Under the pieces are notes generated by a model. The model made no database searches. It was given only the letters and a program-made list of their open reading frames with translations, and was not told the origin of the DNA. The position numbers were made by a program, and so were the translations under genes. Of a stretch of DNA of 64,000 nucleotides, positions 55,126 to 61,285 are shown in pieces. The first letter of the stretch is position 1; every line of letters begins with the position of its first letter. The DNA comes from Bacteroidota bacterium (GTDB lineage: Bacteria > Bacteroidota > Bacteroidia > 2-12-FULL-35-15): NCBI GenBank assembly GCA_023251835.1, contig JAHEXZ010000022.1:251-64250 (forward strand), in the 5' to 3' direction.

Positions 55126-56523
55126 CTATCCGGTAATATCCGGTAATTCTTTATTGGTTCTAACATATTTTGTAGAAGGACCTTCGCCAACTTTACTCAC
55201 CCATTCTCCTTCCAATAATTTTGAAATATCATTTCTTGCGGTTTTTTCCGAAATATTTCCTTTATAGAACTTTTCATATTCTTCTCTTGCAAATTGGTCG
55301 GCTGTTTTAATACGTTTTAAAAAGGAGAACATTCTCTTATTCATTTCTATTTGCTTCGCTGTTCCATAAAGCGTAAGTGTAGTGTATCCACTTTGTGTTG
55401 TCCATTCAGGCATTCGCAAGCCAAATTCGGTAAACTTGTTTTTAATCAAACTCAAACCTCTTCCTAATTTTTCTATTTTACCTCTCAGGTAAAACATATG
55501 GGCAATAGTTGGATTTCTTAAAACAGAATGGTGCTCTTTTATTTTGTTTTTCCCTAAAATAATATCAGGGGGAATTTCACCAGAATTAATTATTTCAATT
55601 TTATCAGAATAAATATTTATGGTAATATCCCCCGATATATCAGCATAATCTCTATGAACCATTGCGTTTAGAATAGCTTCATCTAATGCCTCCATCGGAT
55701 ATTTTTCATGCGTTGTCCTGTCCCAATTATCGTGCTTAAATACACTAACCATTGGCAGATTGCGATTAAAATATTCCTGAATACGATTAAAAGACGTGAA
55801 TAAATTATCTTCTATCAAAACGGTATCATCAAAACGGCTTCCAGTTTTTCCGTGTGGCATAACAGTAATTCTGATTCGGCATTGCGAAATAAATTTAACA
55901 GGGTCTTTACCAAATAAAACGATGCTTCCGTTCTTTATCAAATTCAAATCAAACAATTGGAAGTAGTTGAGAAATTCTGGAATATCATTTGGTAAACTTT
56001 TGCCTCTGCCTATCTTGTTGGATTCGTTAATAGTAGTTTCAATTTCTTTTTGAACTAAATCTTCCAAAACAGCATCAATAGTCGTTTGTTTTTCCCAAGT
56101 GGAAGCATATTCATTGGAGCTACGCATAAGCAAACTGATTTCATCTCCATTGGCTTCTTTGGTAATACTGTCCTGCCTCACGTAATACTTGCGGTCAAAA
56201 GAGTATGGTTGCCGTGAACCTTTAATCACGTTCATTAGAATTACATGTTTGCTCTTGTAAGTTTCTATCCGAACATCAATTAAAGGTTGAGGAAAAATCT
56301 GTTCAACAATCAACCTCTTTAGTTCTATAACTTTTTCGTCAATGCCATTTGTTATACCTATCAATTCTTTTCCATTATATCCAACCAATATCCAACCTCC
56401 TTCAGTATTCAGAAAGCCACAAGCAGCCTGCATTAGCTGTTGGGGTTTATATTCACTTACAAATTCGATTTGAAGATTTTCTTTTTGCTGAATCAACTCA
56501 GCTATGAATGAACTGTTAATCAT
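55126..56523 (-). CDS. Schlafen/AlbA_2 domain + RecG-C-like (HATPase_c_4) domain + winged HTH
   Basis: E-x4-EF and FLNTEGG.ILVG; YYVR; EAILNAMVHRDY, IEIINSG, RNPTIA, IEKLGRG; C-terminal SEKTARNDISKL...VGEGPSTKY. Confidence 0.88.
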   Translation of the reverse strand: MINSSFIAELIQQKENLQIEFVSEYKPQQLMQAACGFLNTEGGWILVGYNGKELIGITNGIDEKVIELKRLIVEQIFPQPLIDVRIETYKSKHVILMNVIKGSRQPYSFDRKYYVRQDSITKEANGDEISLLMRSSNEYASTWEKQTTIDAVLEDLVQKEIETTINESNKIGRGKSLPNDIPEFLNYFQLFDLNLIKNGSIVLFGKDPVKFISQCRIRITVMPHGKTGSRFDDTVLIEDNLFTSFNRIQEYFNRNLPMVSVFKHDNWDRTTHEKYPMEALDEAILNAMVHRDYADISGDITINIYSDKIEIINSGEIPPDIILGKNKIKEHHSVLRNPTIAHMFYLRGKIEKLGRGLSLIKNKFTEFGLRMPEWTTQSGYTTLTLYGTAKQIEMNKRMFSFLKRIKTADQFAREEYEKFYKGNISEKTARNDISKLLEGEWVSKVGEGPSTKYVRTNKELPDITG

Positions 56524-57134
56524 GGTAATAATTTGATTTTATCAATTAAATTCTTAATCCTTACTGGATATTTAAACTGACTATCTAAATGCAATCGTAT
56601 ATCTTCTAAACTCTGATACTCCTGAACCCAATTTCCTTTTCTATCCAATGGTGGAATTTTATTTTTTATCATCTCCTCATACAATTGAACACAGCGAATA
56701 TCCATGATAGTGTTATTATTAAAATTGATATTGCCGGAATCGATCGGAATATCAATACCGCCATTGTTAATGGCAGCCTTTCTGATAAGAGAACGAGTAA
56801 ACGTAACACGGAAATCAGCCATAATAAATCTTGGGATTTTGCGGACAATAGCCGTTTCAAATTCTTGATGTGTGATGGACTTACCGCTTTTATCTAAAAC
56901 ACTCGAACCGTAATCCGGTCTGATAAACCCAATGAACAGATCGCATTCTTCAACTCCATTGGTGCAATTTTGCAAATTTGATTCACTACTATCAACCATT
57001 ATAGTTCCTTTATGAGAATTTAAAACATCATAGCCAAAGCCATCTAATAATTCATAGATTTTATTTAACTCAGTTTGAAAGTTATAAACTGTTGATGCTA
57101 CAAATATTTTAATATGATTACGTGGTGCTGCCAT
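56520..57134 (-). CDS. DUF4062 domain protein (TIR/nucleoside-deoxyribosyltransferase-like fold)
   Basis: KIFVAST, C...VEECDLFIGFI...YGS, SITHQEFETA; ATGA-type 4-bp overlap with the downstream gene. Confidence 0.85.
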   Translation of the reverse strand: MAAPRNHIKIFVASTVYNFQTELNKIYELLDGFGYDVLNSHKGTIMVDSSESNLQNCTNGVEECDLFIGFIRPDYGSSVLDKSGKSITHQEFETAIVRKIPRFIMADFRVTFTRSLIRKAAINNGGIDIPIDSGNINFNNNTIMDIRCVQLYEEMIKNKIPPLDRKGNWVQEYQSLEDIRLHLDSQFKYPVRIKNLIDKIKLLP

Positions 57135-57157: not shown

Positions 57158-58192
57158 TTATTCCTTTTGAATTATGAAATCCAAAACCCTAATTTTAACA
57201 TAAGCTTCCTCTGCATAAAGAAATCCTAAGTCTTCTCCATTATTTGCCATATTCATCTCAAATGATCGCGCCAAAAAGGGTTGAATAACTTCATTTCCTA
57301 TTACCAGTGTTTTTGGTTGATAGCTCACAATTGTGCCAGTCTTGTCATAAATAAGTAGCAAAATTTTTATTGAAAAAACAGCGGTGGGTAGATTGTTTTT
57401 TATCGAGAAAAAAACTTTTGCTGGCAAACAATGCTTGCTCGTTCCTCTCGTCCATTCAAAACAAGGGTCAATATTTCGTATAGTAACGCCTGTTTTAATA
57501 AGGGGAGATGCGGAAGTCTGAGAGACAGTTTTAACTTTCGATTTTACAGATGATAAAGAGGTTACTGTTCCAATTTTTAATTTTAAGCTAAGTAAATATT
57601 TTACTGGTATTGCAAAATTTATATTTTGTCCATCTGTGAAACTTGCAAATGCAATACCTATAGCCAGTCCAAGTGAATTTAAAACAGGGCCTCCACTACT
57701 ACCAGGTGAAATAGGAGCAGTGATTTGCAAAACTTTGTTAGTTTGTATATCACGTATTCCGCTAATATTACCTTCAGAAAATGTACCATTAAATCCTTTA
57801 GGATTGCCAACAGCAAATATTTTTTCGCCTATCTCCGGAAGATTTTCACTTCCTAAATTTAATTTGTCTCCCGATAGCTCGGAAATTTTTAAGATTACTA
57901 AATCGTTTGCTTTATCTATTGCAACATATCCATTTACCTTATATTTTTTATCTTCTCCGTTTTTTAGAATATACGCTGAATTACATCCTTCAATAACATG
58001 TACATTCGTTGCAACCAATTCATCATCTATCATAAAGCCAGAGCCATATCCCAATGGTTGTATAAATTGGTCTAAAGCAACAATCGACACGGTTGATTTT
58101 ATTCCGGTTTTGGCAATTTCGGTGGATGATTGTCCAAATATTTTTAATGATGTCAGTAAAATGGCCAATAAAATAAATTTATTTCCTCTCAT
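57158..58192 (-). CDS. Exported S1C/trypsin-like serine protease with C-terminal beta domain
   Basis: Signal peptide; GSGF, TNVHV (His), NDLVILKI (Asp), ISPGSSGGP (Ser). Confidence 0.92.
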   Translation of the reverse strand: MRGNKFILLAILLTSLKIFGQSSTEIAKTGIKSTVSIVALDQFIQPLGYGSGFMIDDELVATNVHVIEGCNSAYILKNGEDKKYKVNGYVAIDKANDLVILKISELSGDKLNLGSENLPEIGEKIFAVGNPKGFNGTFSEGNISGIRDIQTNKVLQITAPISPGSSGGPVLNSLGLAIGIAFASFTDGQNINFAIPVKYLLSLKLKIGTVTSLSSVKSKVKTVSQTSASPLIKTGVTIRNIDPCFEWTRGTSKHCLPAKVFFSIKNNLPTAVFSIKILLLIYDKTGTIVSYQPKTLVIGNEVIQPFLARSFEMNMANNGEDLGFLYAEEAYVKIRVLDFIIQKE

Positions 58193-58290: not shown

Positions 58291-58404
58291 GCGCATTTGA
58301 AAAAAATGGCTCTTTTGCTTTTGCCGAAGGCTAGTTTTGCATATCCAGGGGCAAAAGCAAAAGAGCCAATTGTGCAGTTGGCTAAAATTGTTTTTAAAAT
58401 GCGC
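58291..58404. repeat. Large intergenic inverted repeat
   Basis: Perfect 19-bp arms TGGCTCTTTTGCTTTTGCC (58307-58325) / GGCAAAAGCAAAAGAGCCA (58350-58368), enclosed by GCGCATTT / AAATGCGC. Confidence 0.8.
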
Positions 58405-58527: not shown

Positions 58528-59214
58528 TTATAAAGTCAGAGTATATTCCAACCCAACAATGTATAGATTTTGCGGGGCTGAAACATTATATTCGTTTTGA
58601 ATAAGGTAATATAGTCCAAATGTATTTCTATCACTTTGCTTATAATCCAAACCTAAGGAATAACGCTGCCGGTGCCATAATCTATCGGATTCAATGTTTC
58701 TGGGATTATTGATCTGATAACGAAGTTCAGCAGCAATATAAGGTGTTATCCGTTTATTTAAATCATATTTAAGCTGAAATTTGCTTCTCGAATACCATTC
58801 AGGAACAGCACCATCATTACTGCTGTTTACATTTCTTACTTCGGACTGGAAACGCTGCCGAAAGGCGATGCTGTAGTTACCAATTTTATGTTTTAATAAA
58901 ATATCCAACATTAAACGATGACGGTAACTGAAGGTATTATCTAACATATATTTCTCAATTGACCGGTAAGAGAGGGCGATTTTTAATGGTTTGATTGGAC
59001 GAACCGCAACACCAATATCGGTATAGAACAGGTTGGTTCGGGTAAAATTTTCTTTCACACGATATTCTTCGGTAAGAAAAACAGTGGTATTATTTTTAAG
59101 TTCTTTTTCAATGGTAAATGTTGTCCATAAGCCTGCGTCATTTGTGGGTTGTGAAAAACAAATTGCGTTTGGTCCTGACACAATAAGAAATAATAAGTTT
59201 ATTTTTTTTAACAT
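58528..59214 (-). CDS. DUF2490 outer-membrane beta-barrel protein
   Basis: Signal peptide; DAGLW, EHRL-like YRHRL, RQRFQ..., R.R motifs; terminal aromatic strand. Confidence 0.8.
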   Translation of the reverse strand: MLKKINLLFLIVSGPNAICFSQPTNDAGLWTTFTIEKELKNNTTVFLTEEYRVKENFTRTNLFYTDIGVAVRPIKPLKIALSYRSIEKYMLDNTFSYRHRLMLDILLKHKIGNYSIAFRQRFQSEVRNVNSSNDGAVPEWYSRSKFQLKYDLNKRITPYIAAELRYQINNPRNIESDRLWHRQRYSLGLDYKQSDRNTFGLYYLIQNEYNVSAPQNLYIVGLEYTLTL

Positions 59215-59219
59215 TATTT

Positions 59220-59846
59220 TTATGTGGTTTCGTAGTAATAAATCTTTATCAAAGCTGTATCTTTTAAAAAATCTACTTTAGTGATTGCGATACGGTTAAT
59301 TTTTATACCTGTTCTTGATTCCAGATCATTGATAAGCTCTGCTTTATTTTCAGGTCTTATCAGTTCTATATTTTCATATTGAATGGTTTTTGAAGATTCT
59401 TTTTTAATGAATATATTGCTTTCAAGTATATAGGTAAAACCGATGATGATTAAATTCAGAAGTAAGAATTCGTCCCAACTTCCTTTACTTACAGCAGTGA
59501 GTAACCCCATAGCGATTACCAAAAAAAGATAAGTCATATCCTTCATTGAAATACCTTCTGTTCGGTATCGCAACATAGAAAATACTGCAAACAATCCAAA
59601 GGCAGCTCCCATACTCATTTCTACCTTATTTAAAATAAAGCTAATCAGGAAAATGATTAAGTTGAAAATAAAAAAGGTAAAGAAAAATTCCCGATTTTTA
59701 TAAATCGGGTAATAAATAAAACGAATAAGTATGAATACAGACAGGATGTCTATACCCAACCGGATAAAAAATTTAGGACCTAATTTTTCAAATAAACTGA
59801 ATGCCTGGCCTGCAGTATCAGTATCAATTGTTTGTAATAGTACCAT
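59220..59846 (-). CDS. DUF4956 domain membrane protein
   Basis: MGAAFGLFAVFSMLRYRTE...KDMTYLF motif; TM helices; C-terminal soluble domain. Confidence 0.92.
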   Translation of the reverse strand: MVLLQTIDTDTAGQAFSLFEKLGPKFFIRLGIDILSVFILIRFIYYPIYKNREFFFTFFIFNLIIFLISFILNKVEMSMGAAFGLFAVFSMLRYRTEGISMKDMTYLFLVIAMGLLTAVSKGSWDEFLLLNLIIIGFTYILESNIFIKKESSKTIQYENIELIRPENKAELINDLESRTGIKINRIAITKVDFLKDTALIKIYYYETT

Positions 59847-60588
59847 ATAATACTTTTTTTAGTAAAATTAAATTGGGTTTGAAATTATTGTGTTTTATTT
59901 TAAATAAACTGATTATTCCATAACAATATTTACTGATAGAACCTTCACGCAGATGATACTTTTTCATCAGTTTGACAAATGGCGAACTTAATGCTTTATC
60001 CTGTTTTACTTCTGCTATTACAAGATTTTCAATGGTTTTACATTGTTCCTTACTTTTAAAAGTTAAGTCAATATCTATGGTTACACGTTCAGGAGAAACT
60101 TTATTTACAAATGTAATTCTTGAATAATTCACCCAGATTTTAGCTTCTAAATTTACAGATTCAAGAGGTGTTTTATCTCTCAATAATACTTCCGCTGCAT
60201 CTTTTATTGAATCTCCTATTTGTTTTTGTTTAACACGATCTTTGATAGTTCTTCCTTTGTTGTTTTTAAATTTAACTTCAAAAAAATGAAGGTTAGATTC
60301 TACATATTTCCTGAATCTGATTTTAAATCTGTTTGGTTTTCTTCTATGGTGGCAATGGTATAGGTCGAAATTTGCAGTATCGAAATAGAGAGACTCATAA
60401 CGGCTAATTCTGTTTCCTTCTATCTCAAGTACTCTGTAATCATTTTTTAATTGATCGAGAAAATATGGCAATTGCTGAAGGGTAAACACATATTTTGTAT
60501 CTGTTCTATCCATTAATTTTACATTATCCATTTCTTTTAATGTAATGGGAGAGAAATCAGCTAATATGGAGTTGAGATTTTTTTCCAA
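59824..60588 (-). CDS. Polyphosphate polymerase (VTC) domain protein, CYTH-like tunnel fold
   Basis: RTDTKY, SLYFDT..FDLY, KIRFRKY, FFEVKFK, R.T..., RVTID..L, AEVK, SKYC. Confidence 0.92.
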   Translation of the reverse strand: MEKNLNSILADFSPITLKEMDNVKLMDRTDTKYVFTLQQLPYFLDQLKNDYRVLEIEGNRISRYESLYFDTANFDLYHCHHRRKPNRFKIRFRKYVESNLHFFEVKFKNNKGRTIKDRVKQKQIGDSIKDAAEVLLRDKTPLESVNLEAKIWVNYSRITFVNKVSPERVTIDIDLTFKSKEQCKTIENLVIAEVKQDKALSSPFVKLMKKYHLREGSISKYCYGIISLFKIKHNNFKPNLILLKKVLYGTITNN

Positions 60589-60590
60589 TT

Positions 60591-61160
60591 TTAATATTCG
60601 TAAGTGTATTTTTTTATTGAAAGTACATTGCTATTAGCATCCATGGTTTTCTTCTCTGTTTTCAGGCCATTTTTGTCATAGGTATAAATGGATTTCTTCA
60701 GAACTTTTCCTTTCTCATCGCTTGTAATTTCATATATTTTTTCATCATTGAGATTATAGCCATAAATTGTTTTTTCAATTAATTTATCCTTACTGTCAAA
60801 AATGCTTTCAGTAGTTTTATCGTTATTAACATTATATTCAGTAATAATTTTCTTTTTTAAATTTCCTTTTTCATCATAAATACTTTCTTCAACAGGGTCA
60901 TCATTTTTATTGAATTTTTTAGTTTCCTTTTTCTTAAAATTACCATCCTTATTGTATTCAATATCTTCAATTACATGACCTGAATTGTCATATTTCTGAT
61001 AGGAGTCGTTTCTTGTTTTCTCTTTGCCGTCAATGGTTTCAGTAACCGTAACAGCAGTTGATTTTATTTTTAATTTTTTAATTGTTTTTTTGCTTTGAGC
61101 AAGGATACAATTGCTGCTATTAATCAATAGAAGAAGGGATATGAGTATTCTTATGTTCAT
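60591..61160 (-). CDS. Exported Lys-rich protein with ~24-aa YD-like beta repeats
   Basis: Signal peptide; repeats YDNSG/YDEKG/YDKNG...E....; 2-bp gap to the VTC gene. Confidence 0.7.
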   Translation of the reverse strand: MNIRILISLLLLINSSNCILAQSKKTIKKLKIKSTAVTVTETIDGKEKTRNDSYQKYDNSGHVIEDIEYNKDGNFKKKETKKFNKNDDPVEESIYDEKGNLKKKIITEYNVNNDKTTESIFDSKDKLIEKTIYGYNLNDEKIYEITSDEKGKVLKKSIYTYDKNGLKTEKKTMDANSNVLSIKKYTYEY

Positions 61161-61186
61161 TAGTATATAATTTGTAGTAGTTTTGA

Positions 61187-61224
61187 CCTCTCCCCTGCCC
61201 CTCTCCTTGAGGAAGGAGAGTGGG
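61187..61224 (+). repeat. Palindromic repeat CCTCTCCCCTGCCCCTCTCCTTGAGGAAGGAGAGTGGG
   Basis: Intergenic copy of the family at 22117, 41159 and 43151; hairpin CTCTCCTT/AAGGAGAG. Confidence 0.7.
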
Positions 61225-61285
61225 TTACTGTTTCTTAAGCAATACGAGAGGGAATGGGTTTAATCTTTTTAAGAAGCGGCATATT

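Follow-up and report, generated by a model that had tools for sequence, protein, structure and literature searches.

What could a relative of the eukaryotic polyphosphate polymerase be doing among the envelope genes of a bacterium? This question is raised by a 64,000-nt stretch of DNA (hereafter the window, whose positions are used as coordinates throughout) from the Bacteroidota bacterium assembly GCA_023251835.1, contig JAHEXZ010000022.1. Four closely packed minus-strand open reading frames (ORFs) encode a Lys-rich exported repeat protein, a VTC-domain protein, a DUF4956 inner-membrane protein and a DUF2490 outer-membrane β-barrel, and a lipoprotein gene precedes them (Table 1). Reviews published between 2023 and 2026 describe VTC as the eukaryotic polyphosphate (polyP) polymerase, and PPK1 and PPK2 as the prokaryotic ones.

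The answer that we tentatively prefer is that the locus encodes a Vtc4-type enzyme, probably a polyP polymerase, which works with an MgtC-like membrane partner in a surface-directed role, together with three exported proteins and the unlinked CotH kinases. In this arrangement, the cytoplasmic VTC protein would most likely convert the γ-phosphate of ATP into polyP. It would be made in fixed proportion with the DUF4956 protein and is probably docked on it, and its product, or a signal derived from this product, would serve an extracytoplasmic purpose shared with the three exported proteins and the secreted kinases of the CotH family. The DUF2490 barrel may act as a small anion-selective pore, and the Lys-rich protein may either bind an anionic polymer in the periplasm or serve as a substrate of a kinase. 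We infer any passage of polymer across either membrane, as well as the direction of its flow. If the enzyme is a polymerase, it would represent a third bacterial route to polyP, invariably paired with an MgtC-like protein and co-occurring with secreted CotH kinases. Such a system would bear on bacterial surface phosphorylation or decoration where ATP is absent, on the molecular role of the MgtC superfamily, and on the reason for the presence of VTC genes at exopolysaccharide loci of Gram-positives and Bacteroidota alike.

The VTC-domain protein and its Vtc4-like tunnel

The VTC-domain protein matches Pfam model PF09359 from profile position 2 to 235 of 235 (2.3e-30; 106.3 bits against a cut-off of 23). 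Within Pfam it scores on the VTC model alone and not on CYTH. VTC is its sole domain, no SPX domain being found in its 254 aa, and NCBIfam holds no model for this protein or for the DUF4956 and DUF2490 proteins. The protein has neither a signal peptide nor a membrane helix and is cytoplasmic.

Its relation to the yeast enzyme emerged at the profile level. A single-sequence phmmer search against the PDB returned nothing relevant and a shallow profile reached Vtc4 at E 0.39; only a profile built from 60 homologues, which are 37-77% identical to the query, matched the catalytic domain of Vtc4 (3g3q) at E 7.8e-6, scoring 28 bits for Vtc4 and 19 bits for Vtc2. Residue equivalences were taken from the profile alignment to 3g3q, which came in three pieces, the last of them weak (0.5 bits). 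They pair K32 of the window protein with K200 of yeast Vtc4, R91/R93 with R264/R266, E104/K106 with E279/K281, Y155/R157 with Y359/R361, E193/K195 with E426/K428 and S219/K220 with S457/K458. Every tunnel residue matched to yeast Vtc4 in this way is kept in the window protein. Moreover, K32, R91, R93, E104, K106, R157, E193, K195 and K220 are invariant in the 60 homologues and S219 is nearly so. Because the matched Vtc4 tunnel residues are all kept, the protein is likely an active Vtc4-type triphosphate-tunnel enzyme and, judging from its sequence, a plausible polyphosphate polymerase.

An alternative enters at this step, namely that the VTC protein is a triphosphatase, a tripolyphosphatase or a cyclase-like enzyme, which would control exopolysaccharide and CotH phosphorylation via the ACT-like domain of DUF4956. 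The ligands of ACT domains are typically small molecules, which would suit such a control. The triphosphate-tunnel superfamily also harbors several chemistries (PMC9582702). We nevertheless consider this alternative unlikely, as the protein scores on the VTC model and not on CYTH, and its PDB profile match is better to Vtc4 than to Vtc2. In addition, a Lys is retained at the position of Vtc4 K458, a residue that is reportedly required for polymerase activity and lost in the inactive Vtc2.

The enzyme belongs to a large family: 3945 representative clusters (50% identity) were retrieved at E ≤ 1e-3, and the best 150 of these are nearly all stand-alone proteins of ~230-320 aa, within search length limits that exclude VTC-DUF4956 fusion proteins. 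Some 3,900 stand-alone clusters stand against reviews that name VTC a eukaryotic enzyme.

DUF4956 as a putative distant relative of MgtC/SapB

The membrane partner matches Pfam PF16316 (4.1e-54, 183 bits). Its AlphaFold2 (AF2) model, of moderate confidence (pLDDT 74), shows a short amphipathic helix, five transmembrane helices (residues 23-49, 52-74, 80-95, 101-119 and 124-142) and a C-terminal β-α-β-β domain (150-205). Positive residues are placed in loops 1 and 3 and past helix 5, and an N-terminal signal peptide is present in the paralogous DUF4956b subgroup. Because of this positive-loop pattern and this signal peptide, an N-out, C-in topology is predicted, which would therefore place the C-terminal domain beside the VTC protein in the cytoplasm.

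Searches for relatives gave results that depended on the diversity of the query. The window protein has no MgtC match in Pfam, and hhalign comparison of its narrow DUF4956 clade with ten Bacteroidota MgtC proteins yielded 0.3%. Of a further ten DUF4956 proteins, drawn from the phylum sample, nine had a sub-threshold MgtC match in Pfam (12-21 bits) and three a sub-threshold ACT match. When 11 other DUF4956 proteins were aligned and compared by hhalign, they reached a probability of 97.5% with MgtC (E 5.7e-12, 198 columns) and 97.1% with the DUF4956 clade of the window; the pooled DUF4956 alignment reached 82% with MgtC. The 0.3% obtained with the narrow clade would, taken alone, have wrongly excluded a kinship that the diverse VTC-adjacent DUF4956 proteins revealed. 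These profile comparisons identify DUF4956 as a putative divergent branch of MgtC/SapB, with kinship at the level of the superfamily and not family membership.

A Foldseek search of the DUF4956 model against the PDB gave a best E of 0.047, with weak resemblance to ACT domains and no chain of a VTC complex among the 50 matches listed. The DUF202 (Vtc1-type) model of Pfam was matched neither by the window protein (E ≤ 10) nor by 10 other DUF4956 proteins (E ≤ 1). The homologue SIR_1592 of Streptococcus intermedius has likewise been described as an MgtC transmembrane domain followed by an ACT domain (PMC12345266, mBio 2025). The roles described for MgtC are regulatory (ATP synthase, PhoR), as cited in that paper.

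Comparison with Salmonella MgtC (PF02308 and a C-terminal ACT-like domain) shows the same predicted order of five helices and a cytoplasmic ACT-like domain, and the profile-profile homology to MgtC/SapB extends over the full length via intermediate DUF4956 sequences, whereas the DUF4956 protein of the window lacks an MgtC Pfam match of its own. We know of no MgtC protein that is paired with a VTC enzyme or that forms part of an envelope operon.

Conservation of a five-gene unit

To place the operon among its relatives, one genome per species was scanned, which resulted in 80 related loci, whose ORFs were called and classified against the window proteins. All but two (78/80) derive from Bacteroidota metagenome-assembled genomes. 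The order lipoprotein (130-145 aa), Lys-rich protein, VTC, DUF4956 and DUF2490 is kept in ~55/80 loci, at 52-87% VTC identity, and in most of the 80 loci, as in a paralogous locus of the window genome (contig C103, see below), the gene just before the Lys-rich one encodes an orthologue of the lipoprotein. The true conserved unit is therefore one of five genes, the lipoprotein gene included. The original prediction had described four genes packed with gaps of 2, -23 and 5 bp; these genes, their coordinates and their gaps were all matched exactly, yet the lipoprotein and the link to CotH had been missed.

Spacing is conserved along with order. VTC and DUF4956 overlap by 23, 26 or 4 nt in 61/71 loci, the gap between the Lys-rich and VTC genes has a median of 2 nt, and that between DUF4956 and DUF2490 a median of 10 nt. 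In ~25/80 loci, the lipoprotein gene is immediately preceded by a gene of the CotH family (760-1030 aa). The gene arrangement is far beyond chance.

In these ~25 Bacteroidota loci, CotH, lipoprotein, Lys-rich protein, VTC and DUF4956 genes are syntenic with no pel genes in view. The CotH/VTC/DUF4956 arrangement has been stated to be absent outside Pel loci (PMC12345266), a remark to which the Bacteroidota synteny runs contrary. The two remaining loci (L062 and L066) carry the label Candidatus Methanoperedens. Their VTC-DUF4956 pair shares 57-59% and 68-69% identity with the proteins of Bacteroidota; either an archaeon acquired it by horizontal transfer or the bins are contaminated.

Co-occurrence with DUF4956, CotH and PPK1

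The same 61 Bacteroidota genomes were searched with each family, and associations were evaluated with Fisher tests, also at genus level. A match was found for VTC in 10/61 genomes, for DUF4956 in 18/61, for CotH in 20/61, for DUF2490 in 19/61 and for PPK1 in 51/61. DUF4956 occurs in all ten VTC genomes and is adjacent to VTC each time (p = 5e-7; genus level, 1.5e-5). That the genes of the operon are neighbours by chance or drift, with no shared function, might be argued from the presence of DUF2490 and of Lys-rich/MORN-type relatives in unrelated contexts as well. This explanation can be practically dismissed, since it is already refuted by conservation: order and overlaps are repeated across dozens of loci with as little as 52% VTC identity, a paralogous type of locus shows them too, and the VTC/DUF4956 association holds at both levels.

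CotH is likewise present in 10/10 VTC genomes (p = 2e-6; genus level, 8e-5) and in 16/18 DUF4956 genomes (p = 3e-9; genus level, 9e-5). The closer link between DUF4956 and CotH matches the genetics of S. intermedius, in which loss of either homologue by deletion changed Pel levels and, in artificial sputum medium, brought aggregation down by >50% (PMC12345266). The association is one of genomes and not necessarily of loci: the five closest relatives of the window genome all encode CotH (5/5), unlinked to the operon, and the window genome itself contains seven CotH genes, none of them near the operon.

PPK1 accompanies VTC in 10/10 genomes, on the basis of which VTC as a replacement of PPK1 was rejected; in all VTC genomes, VTC comes on top of PPK1, in a specialised role, and is not the sole route to polyP. 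The window genome encodes PPK1, and no PPK2 was found in it.

Second copies in the same genome

A second VTC gene lies on contig C82 (C82:20372-21103; L010:8334-9116, minus strand). Its product is 57% identical to the first and keeps the catalytic residues. It ends an operon (L010:9094-12206) of a STAS protein, a 601-aa cellulose-synthase-like glycosyltransferase of family 2 (GT2) and a response-regulator receiver, the gene of which overlaps this second VTC gene (VTC2) by 23 nt. In six relatives, VTC2 is convergent with an intact operon of lipoprotein, Lys-rich protein, DUF4956b and DUF2490, and in four of these six (L064, L067, L069 and L076) GT2 and response-regulator genes lie upstream of VTC2. 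Gram-positive Pel loci contain accessory genes for CotH, polyphosphate-polymerase-domain and DUF4956 proteins (10.1101/768473). With GT2 beside VTC2, Bacteroidota repeat the association of VTC with an exopolysaccharide synthase that these loci show. Both the recurrent STAS/GT2/response-regulator operon that VTC2 ends and the location of the Gram-positive homologues at Pel polysaccharide loci speak for the alternative of a non-polymerase VTC enzyme introduced above.

A second DUF4956 gene (60% identical) lies on contig C103 (L012:6481-7967). It is intact and encodes an N-terminal signal peptide and a Ser/Lys-rich extension. It is preceded by genes for a 146-aa paralogous lipoprotein and a start-less 65-aa remnant of a Lys-rich protein, and no VTC or DUF2490 gene follows it at this locus. 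The C103 locus is a decayed paralogous operon; in relatives, this second operon is still intact.

The three exported proteins

The original prediction assigned one product to each compartment, a distribution borne out by the absence of a signal peptide and membrane helix in the VTC protein, the five helices of DUF4956, the signal peptidase I signal of the Lys-rich protein and the well-modelled barrel of DUF2490.

The barrel protein matches Pfam PF10677 (2e-19, 70.5 bits) and its AF2 model is a high-confidence β-barrel (pLDDT 91, pTM 0.81). Foldseek ranks NanC first (2wjr, E 6.5e-5, TM 0.50/0.54), and KdgM (4fqe) reaches a TMt of 0.56. This resemblance (TM ~0.5-0.56 to 2WJR and 4FQE) is modest and extends to a similar size and a basic lumen. 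NanC and KdgM are small monomeric porins for the uptake of acidic sugars. The DUF2490 protein differs from them in that it lacks membership of their sequence family, with DUF2490 as the only Pfam match at E ≤ 10, and in that the model has 11 strand segments according to DSSP, an odd number for an outer-membrane barrel, against 12. The mature protein contains 17 R and 12 K, and its earlier description as Arg-rich holds. When the more polar strand face is taken as the lumen, this side carries ~20 K/R against 12 D/E, and its conserved positions are mostly basic (R52, K110, R119, R143, K145 and R184, against D26 and E163). In the model, the lumen thus appears net basic.

The Lys-rich protein contains 18.5% Lys (35 K, 2 R, 15 D and 16 E). 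It has a signal of the signal peptidase I type (…ILAQ↓SKK) and no tail of the type IX secretion system (T9SS); because of both features, it is probably periplasmic. The protein is well conserved: its 33 aligned orthologues have the cleavage region AQ↓SKK in common, together with repeats of ~20-22 aa and a C-terminal KKYTYEY. RHS_repeat matches are found in 16/33 orthologues, all weak (best 2.7e-5), and MORN_2 matches in 10/33, whereas the window copy has no Pfam match at E ≤ 0.1 (best MORN_2, at E 0.23); the name YD-repeat is thus fair at family level. A profile of the Lys-rich protein found no match among PDB sequences. The original expectation of a basic periplasmic protein fits its export signal and Lys content, less so its charge balance, to which we return below. 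The conserved KKYTYEY end is aromatic and β-strand-like, and it might be donated in trans as a strand to the DUF2490 barrel, the model of which has 11 strand segments.

The lipoprotein has sub-threshold Pfam matches to Y_Y_Y, fn3_3 and CarboxypepD_reg, a weak signature of a possible CarboxypepD_reg/Ig-like β-sandwich.

The other DUF2490 gene of the genome (contig C101:34314-35505; L131:5314-6506; 145 bits) directly follows a gene for a 141-aa MORN_2 repeat protein. This pair ends a co-directional cluster that encodes a ModE-like helix-turn-helix protein, TauE/SafE, MobA, MoaE and MoaC-MoaB. The position of DUF2490 beside molybdenum-cofactor genes hints at a role as an oxyanion porin. A hairpin-repeat protein therefore adjoins a DUF2490 barrel twice in one genome. 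Comparison of the Lys-rich protein with the MORN_2 protein gave 1.2%, which does not indicate homology, and the two DUF2490 paralogues have diverged beyond the reach of BLASTP.

Weighing polymerase, export and homeostasis

Several observations weigh against the reading of a polyP polymerase with a surface-directed role. The basic tunnel residues are common to hydrolytic and cyclase members of the superfamily, and therefore their conservation is no proof of polymerase chemistry. VTC deletion in S. intermedius had no reported effect (PMC12345266). In the literature searched, no paper was found that assays any bacterial VTC protein, in agreement with the earlier statement that bacterial VTC-DUF4956 pairs are uncharacterised. 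DUF4956 and CotH also occur without VTC, both in one genus (five genomes) and in genome G027, where the two genes lie ~2 kb apart. DUF2490 as an obligate partner of VTC was rejected, as it is found in 5/10 VTC genomes (p = 0.15) and is common in genomes without VTC. In 238/2,789 modelled DUF2490 members, a 2026 preprint describes buried salt-bridge networks, by which the lumen could be filled or occluded. The Lys-rich protein, with a net charge of only +6, is mildly basic. DUF4956 as a relative of the yeast VTC channel subunits was rejected, given the missing DUF202 match and the missing VTC chain among the 50 Foldseek matches listed, so that the VTC-like translocation channel of the original prediction is reduced to an analogy. 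To our knowledge, no transport, pore or channel function is known for the MgtC family. The kinship with MgtC removes the homology argument for translocation by DUF4956, without excluding translocation.

These points bear most heavily on a complete export route, in which the polyP made by VTC would be threaded across the inner membrane by a DUF4956 oligomer during its synthesis, chaperoned by the Lys-rich protein in the periplasm and released at the surface by the DUF2490 barrel. One protein per compartment, tight translational coupling, conserved Vtc4-like catalytic residues and a basic-lumen barrel with a NanC/KdgM-like fold all suit this route, and yeast VTC does couple polyP synthesis to translocation. 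We nevertheless judge it improbable. DUF4956 is MgtC-like, without homology to the VTC channel subunits and without a known pore, and the barrel, for which the basic lumen and the acidic-sugar porin folds would agree with its originally proposed role as polymer exporter, is dispensable in half of the VTC genomes and hence not tied to VTC. Furthermore, the Lys-rich protein and the lipoprotein are restricted to one clade, some DUF2490 barrels may be salt-bridged inside, and in the only genetics available, that of S. intermedius, deletion of VTC had no reported phenotype. A bolder proposal, and in our view a very improbable one, is a PPK-independent vectorial secretion of polyP. Here, a Vtc4-like polymerase would sit on an MgtC-like oligomer, the anion conduit of which would be the long-sought activity of the MgtC superfamily; the polymer would exit via the basic barrel and its Lys-rich partner, and would act as phosphoryl donor or scaffold for CotH kinases that are otherwise without ATP.

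The flow could also be inward or nil. In a module for phosphate/ATP homeostasis, a regulatory DUF4956 and VTC would make membrane-proximal cytoplasmic polyP, and the barrel and the Lys-rich protein would serve the entry of oxyanions (phosphate). The homology of DUF4956 to MgtC over its full length, ACT-like domain included, is in line with such a module, as are the DUF2490 gene at the molybdenum-cofactor cluster with its ModE-like regulator, which fits oxyanion uptake, and the analogues NanC and KdgM, which are uptake porins. MgtC itself is tied to ATP and phosphate homeostasis in work cited in PMC12345266. This explanation remains rather doubtful to us, because extra cytoplasmic polyP seems redundant with PPK1 in every VTC genome, the operon contains no inner-membrane phosphate transporter, and the strong co-occurrence with secreted CotH kinases would be left unexplained. 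The direct substrate of Vtc4 is, moreover, ATP and not imported inorganic phosphate.

Comparison with known systems

Relative to the eukaryotic VTC complex (Vtc4, 3G3Q/3G3R/3G3T/3G3U; Vtc2, 3G3O; Vtc1/2/3/5), the preferred reading of a Vtc4-type enzyme with an MgtC-like partner retains the Pfam VTC domain with its aligned tunnel residues and the pairing of the enzyme with a membrane protein. The bacterial system differs in the lack of SPX and of a three-helix channel subunit of the DUF202 type, in its separate 254-aa catalytic protein with an MgtC-like membrane partner, and in its two-membrane envelope with outer-membrane and periplasmic partners.

The Gram-positive Pel loci (10.1101/768473; SIR_1592-1594, PMC12345266) share the VTC-DUF4956 pair and the link to CotH. 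In the window genome, in contrast, CotH is unlinked, the operon is not at a Pel locus, and an outer-membrane barrel, a periplasmic repeat protein and a lipoprotein are added.

A third comparison is offered by BT3498-BT3499 of Bacteroides thetaiotaomicron, a cultured and genetically tractable species with a DUF4956-DUF2490 neighbourhood. In control searches, this species also scores for VTC and CotH; it carries all the families, which makes the system directly testable there. A transcriptome table lists BT3498-BT3499 with a non-significant change under iron limitation.

Sequence features and neighbours of the operon

The positions of the five genes and of the elements around them are listed in Table 1.

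Table 1. Position of the five-gene unit and of flanking features in the window
Feature	Position	Strand	Remarks
Lipoprotein, 132 aa	61286-61684	-	Lipobox …AVSSC↓KK; first gene of the conserved five-gene unit
GC-rich hairpin, 11-nt arms	61198-61223	.	Inverted repeat in the spacer between the lipoprotein and Lys-rich genes
Lys-rich exported repeat protein, 189 aa	60591-61160	-	Signal peptide; ~20-22-aa repeats, putatively YD/RHS-like β-hairpins
VTC-domain protein, 254 aa	59824-60588	-	TTG start; Pfam PF09359
DUF4956 inner-membrane protein, 208 aa	59220-59846	-	Pfam PF16316; start overlaps the VTC end by 23 nt
DUF2490 outer-membrane β-barrel, 228 aa	58528-59214	-	Pfam PF10677; signal peptide
Terminator-like hairpin	58364-58383	-	~145 nt past the stop codon of DUF2490; transcription unit probably ends here
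Trypsin-like protease gene	57158-58192		Next gene; 335 nt from the DUF2490 stop

Past the protease gene, a DUF4062/Schlafen-ATPase pair occupies positions 55126-57134, separate from the operon. At the other end, upstream of the lipoprotein gene, the window encodes a 993-aa repeat protein with a T9SS tail, where some of the relatives encode CotH. A scan with the sigma-70 promoter consensus, which is not applicable to Bacteroidota, was uninformative (25 found against 21 expected).

The spacer between the lipoprotein and Lys-rich genes measures 125 nt (61161-61285), against a median of 12 nt in the relatives (57 loci). It contains the GC-rich hairpin, with arms CCCCTCTCCTT and AAGGAGAGTGG, which does not look like an intrinsic terminator because no T-run follows. 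The AT-rich genome of 4.1 Mb contains a single copy of the 34-nt core of this hairpin but 28 copies of the 11-mer AAGGAGAGGGG taken from it, suggestive of a family of short palindromic elements rich in GC.

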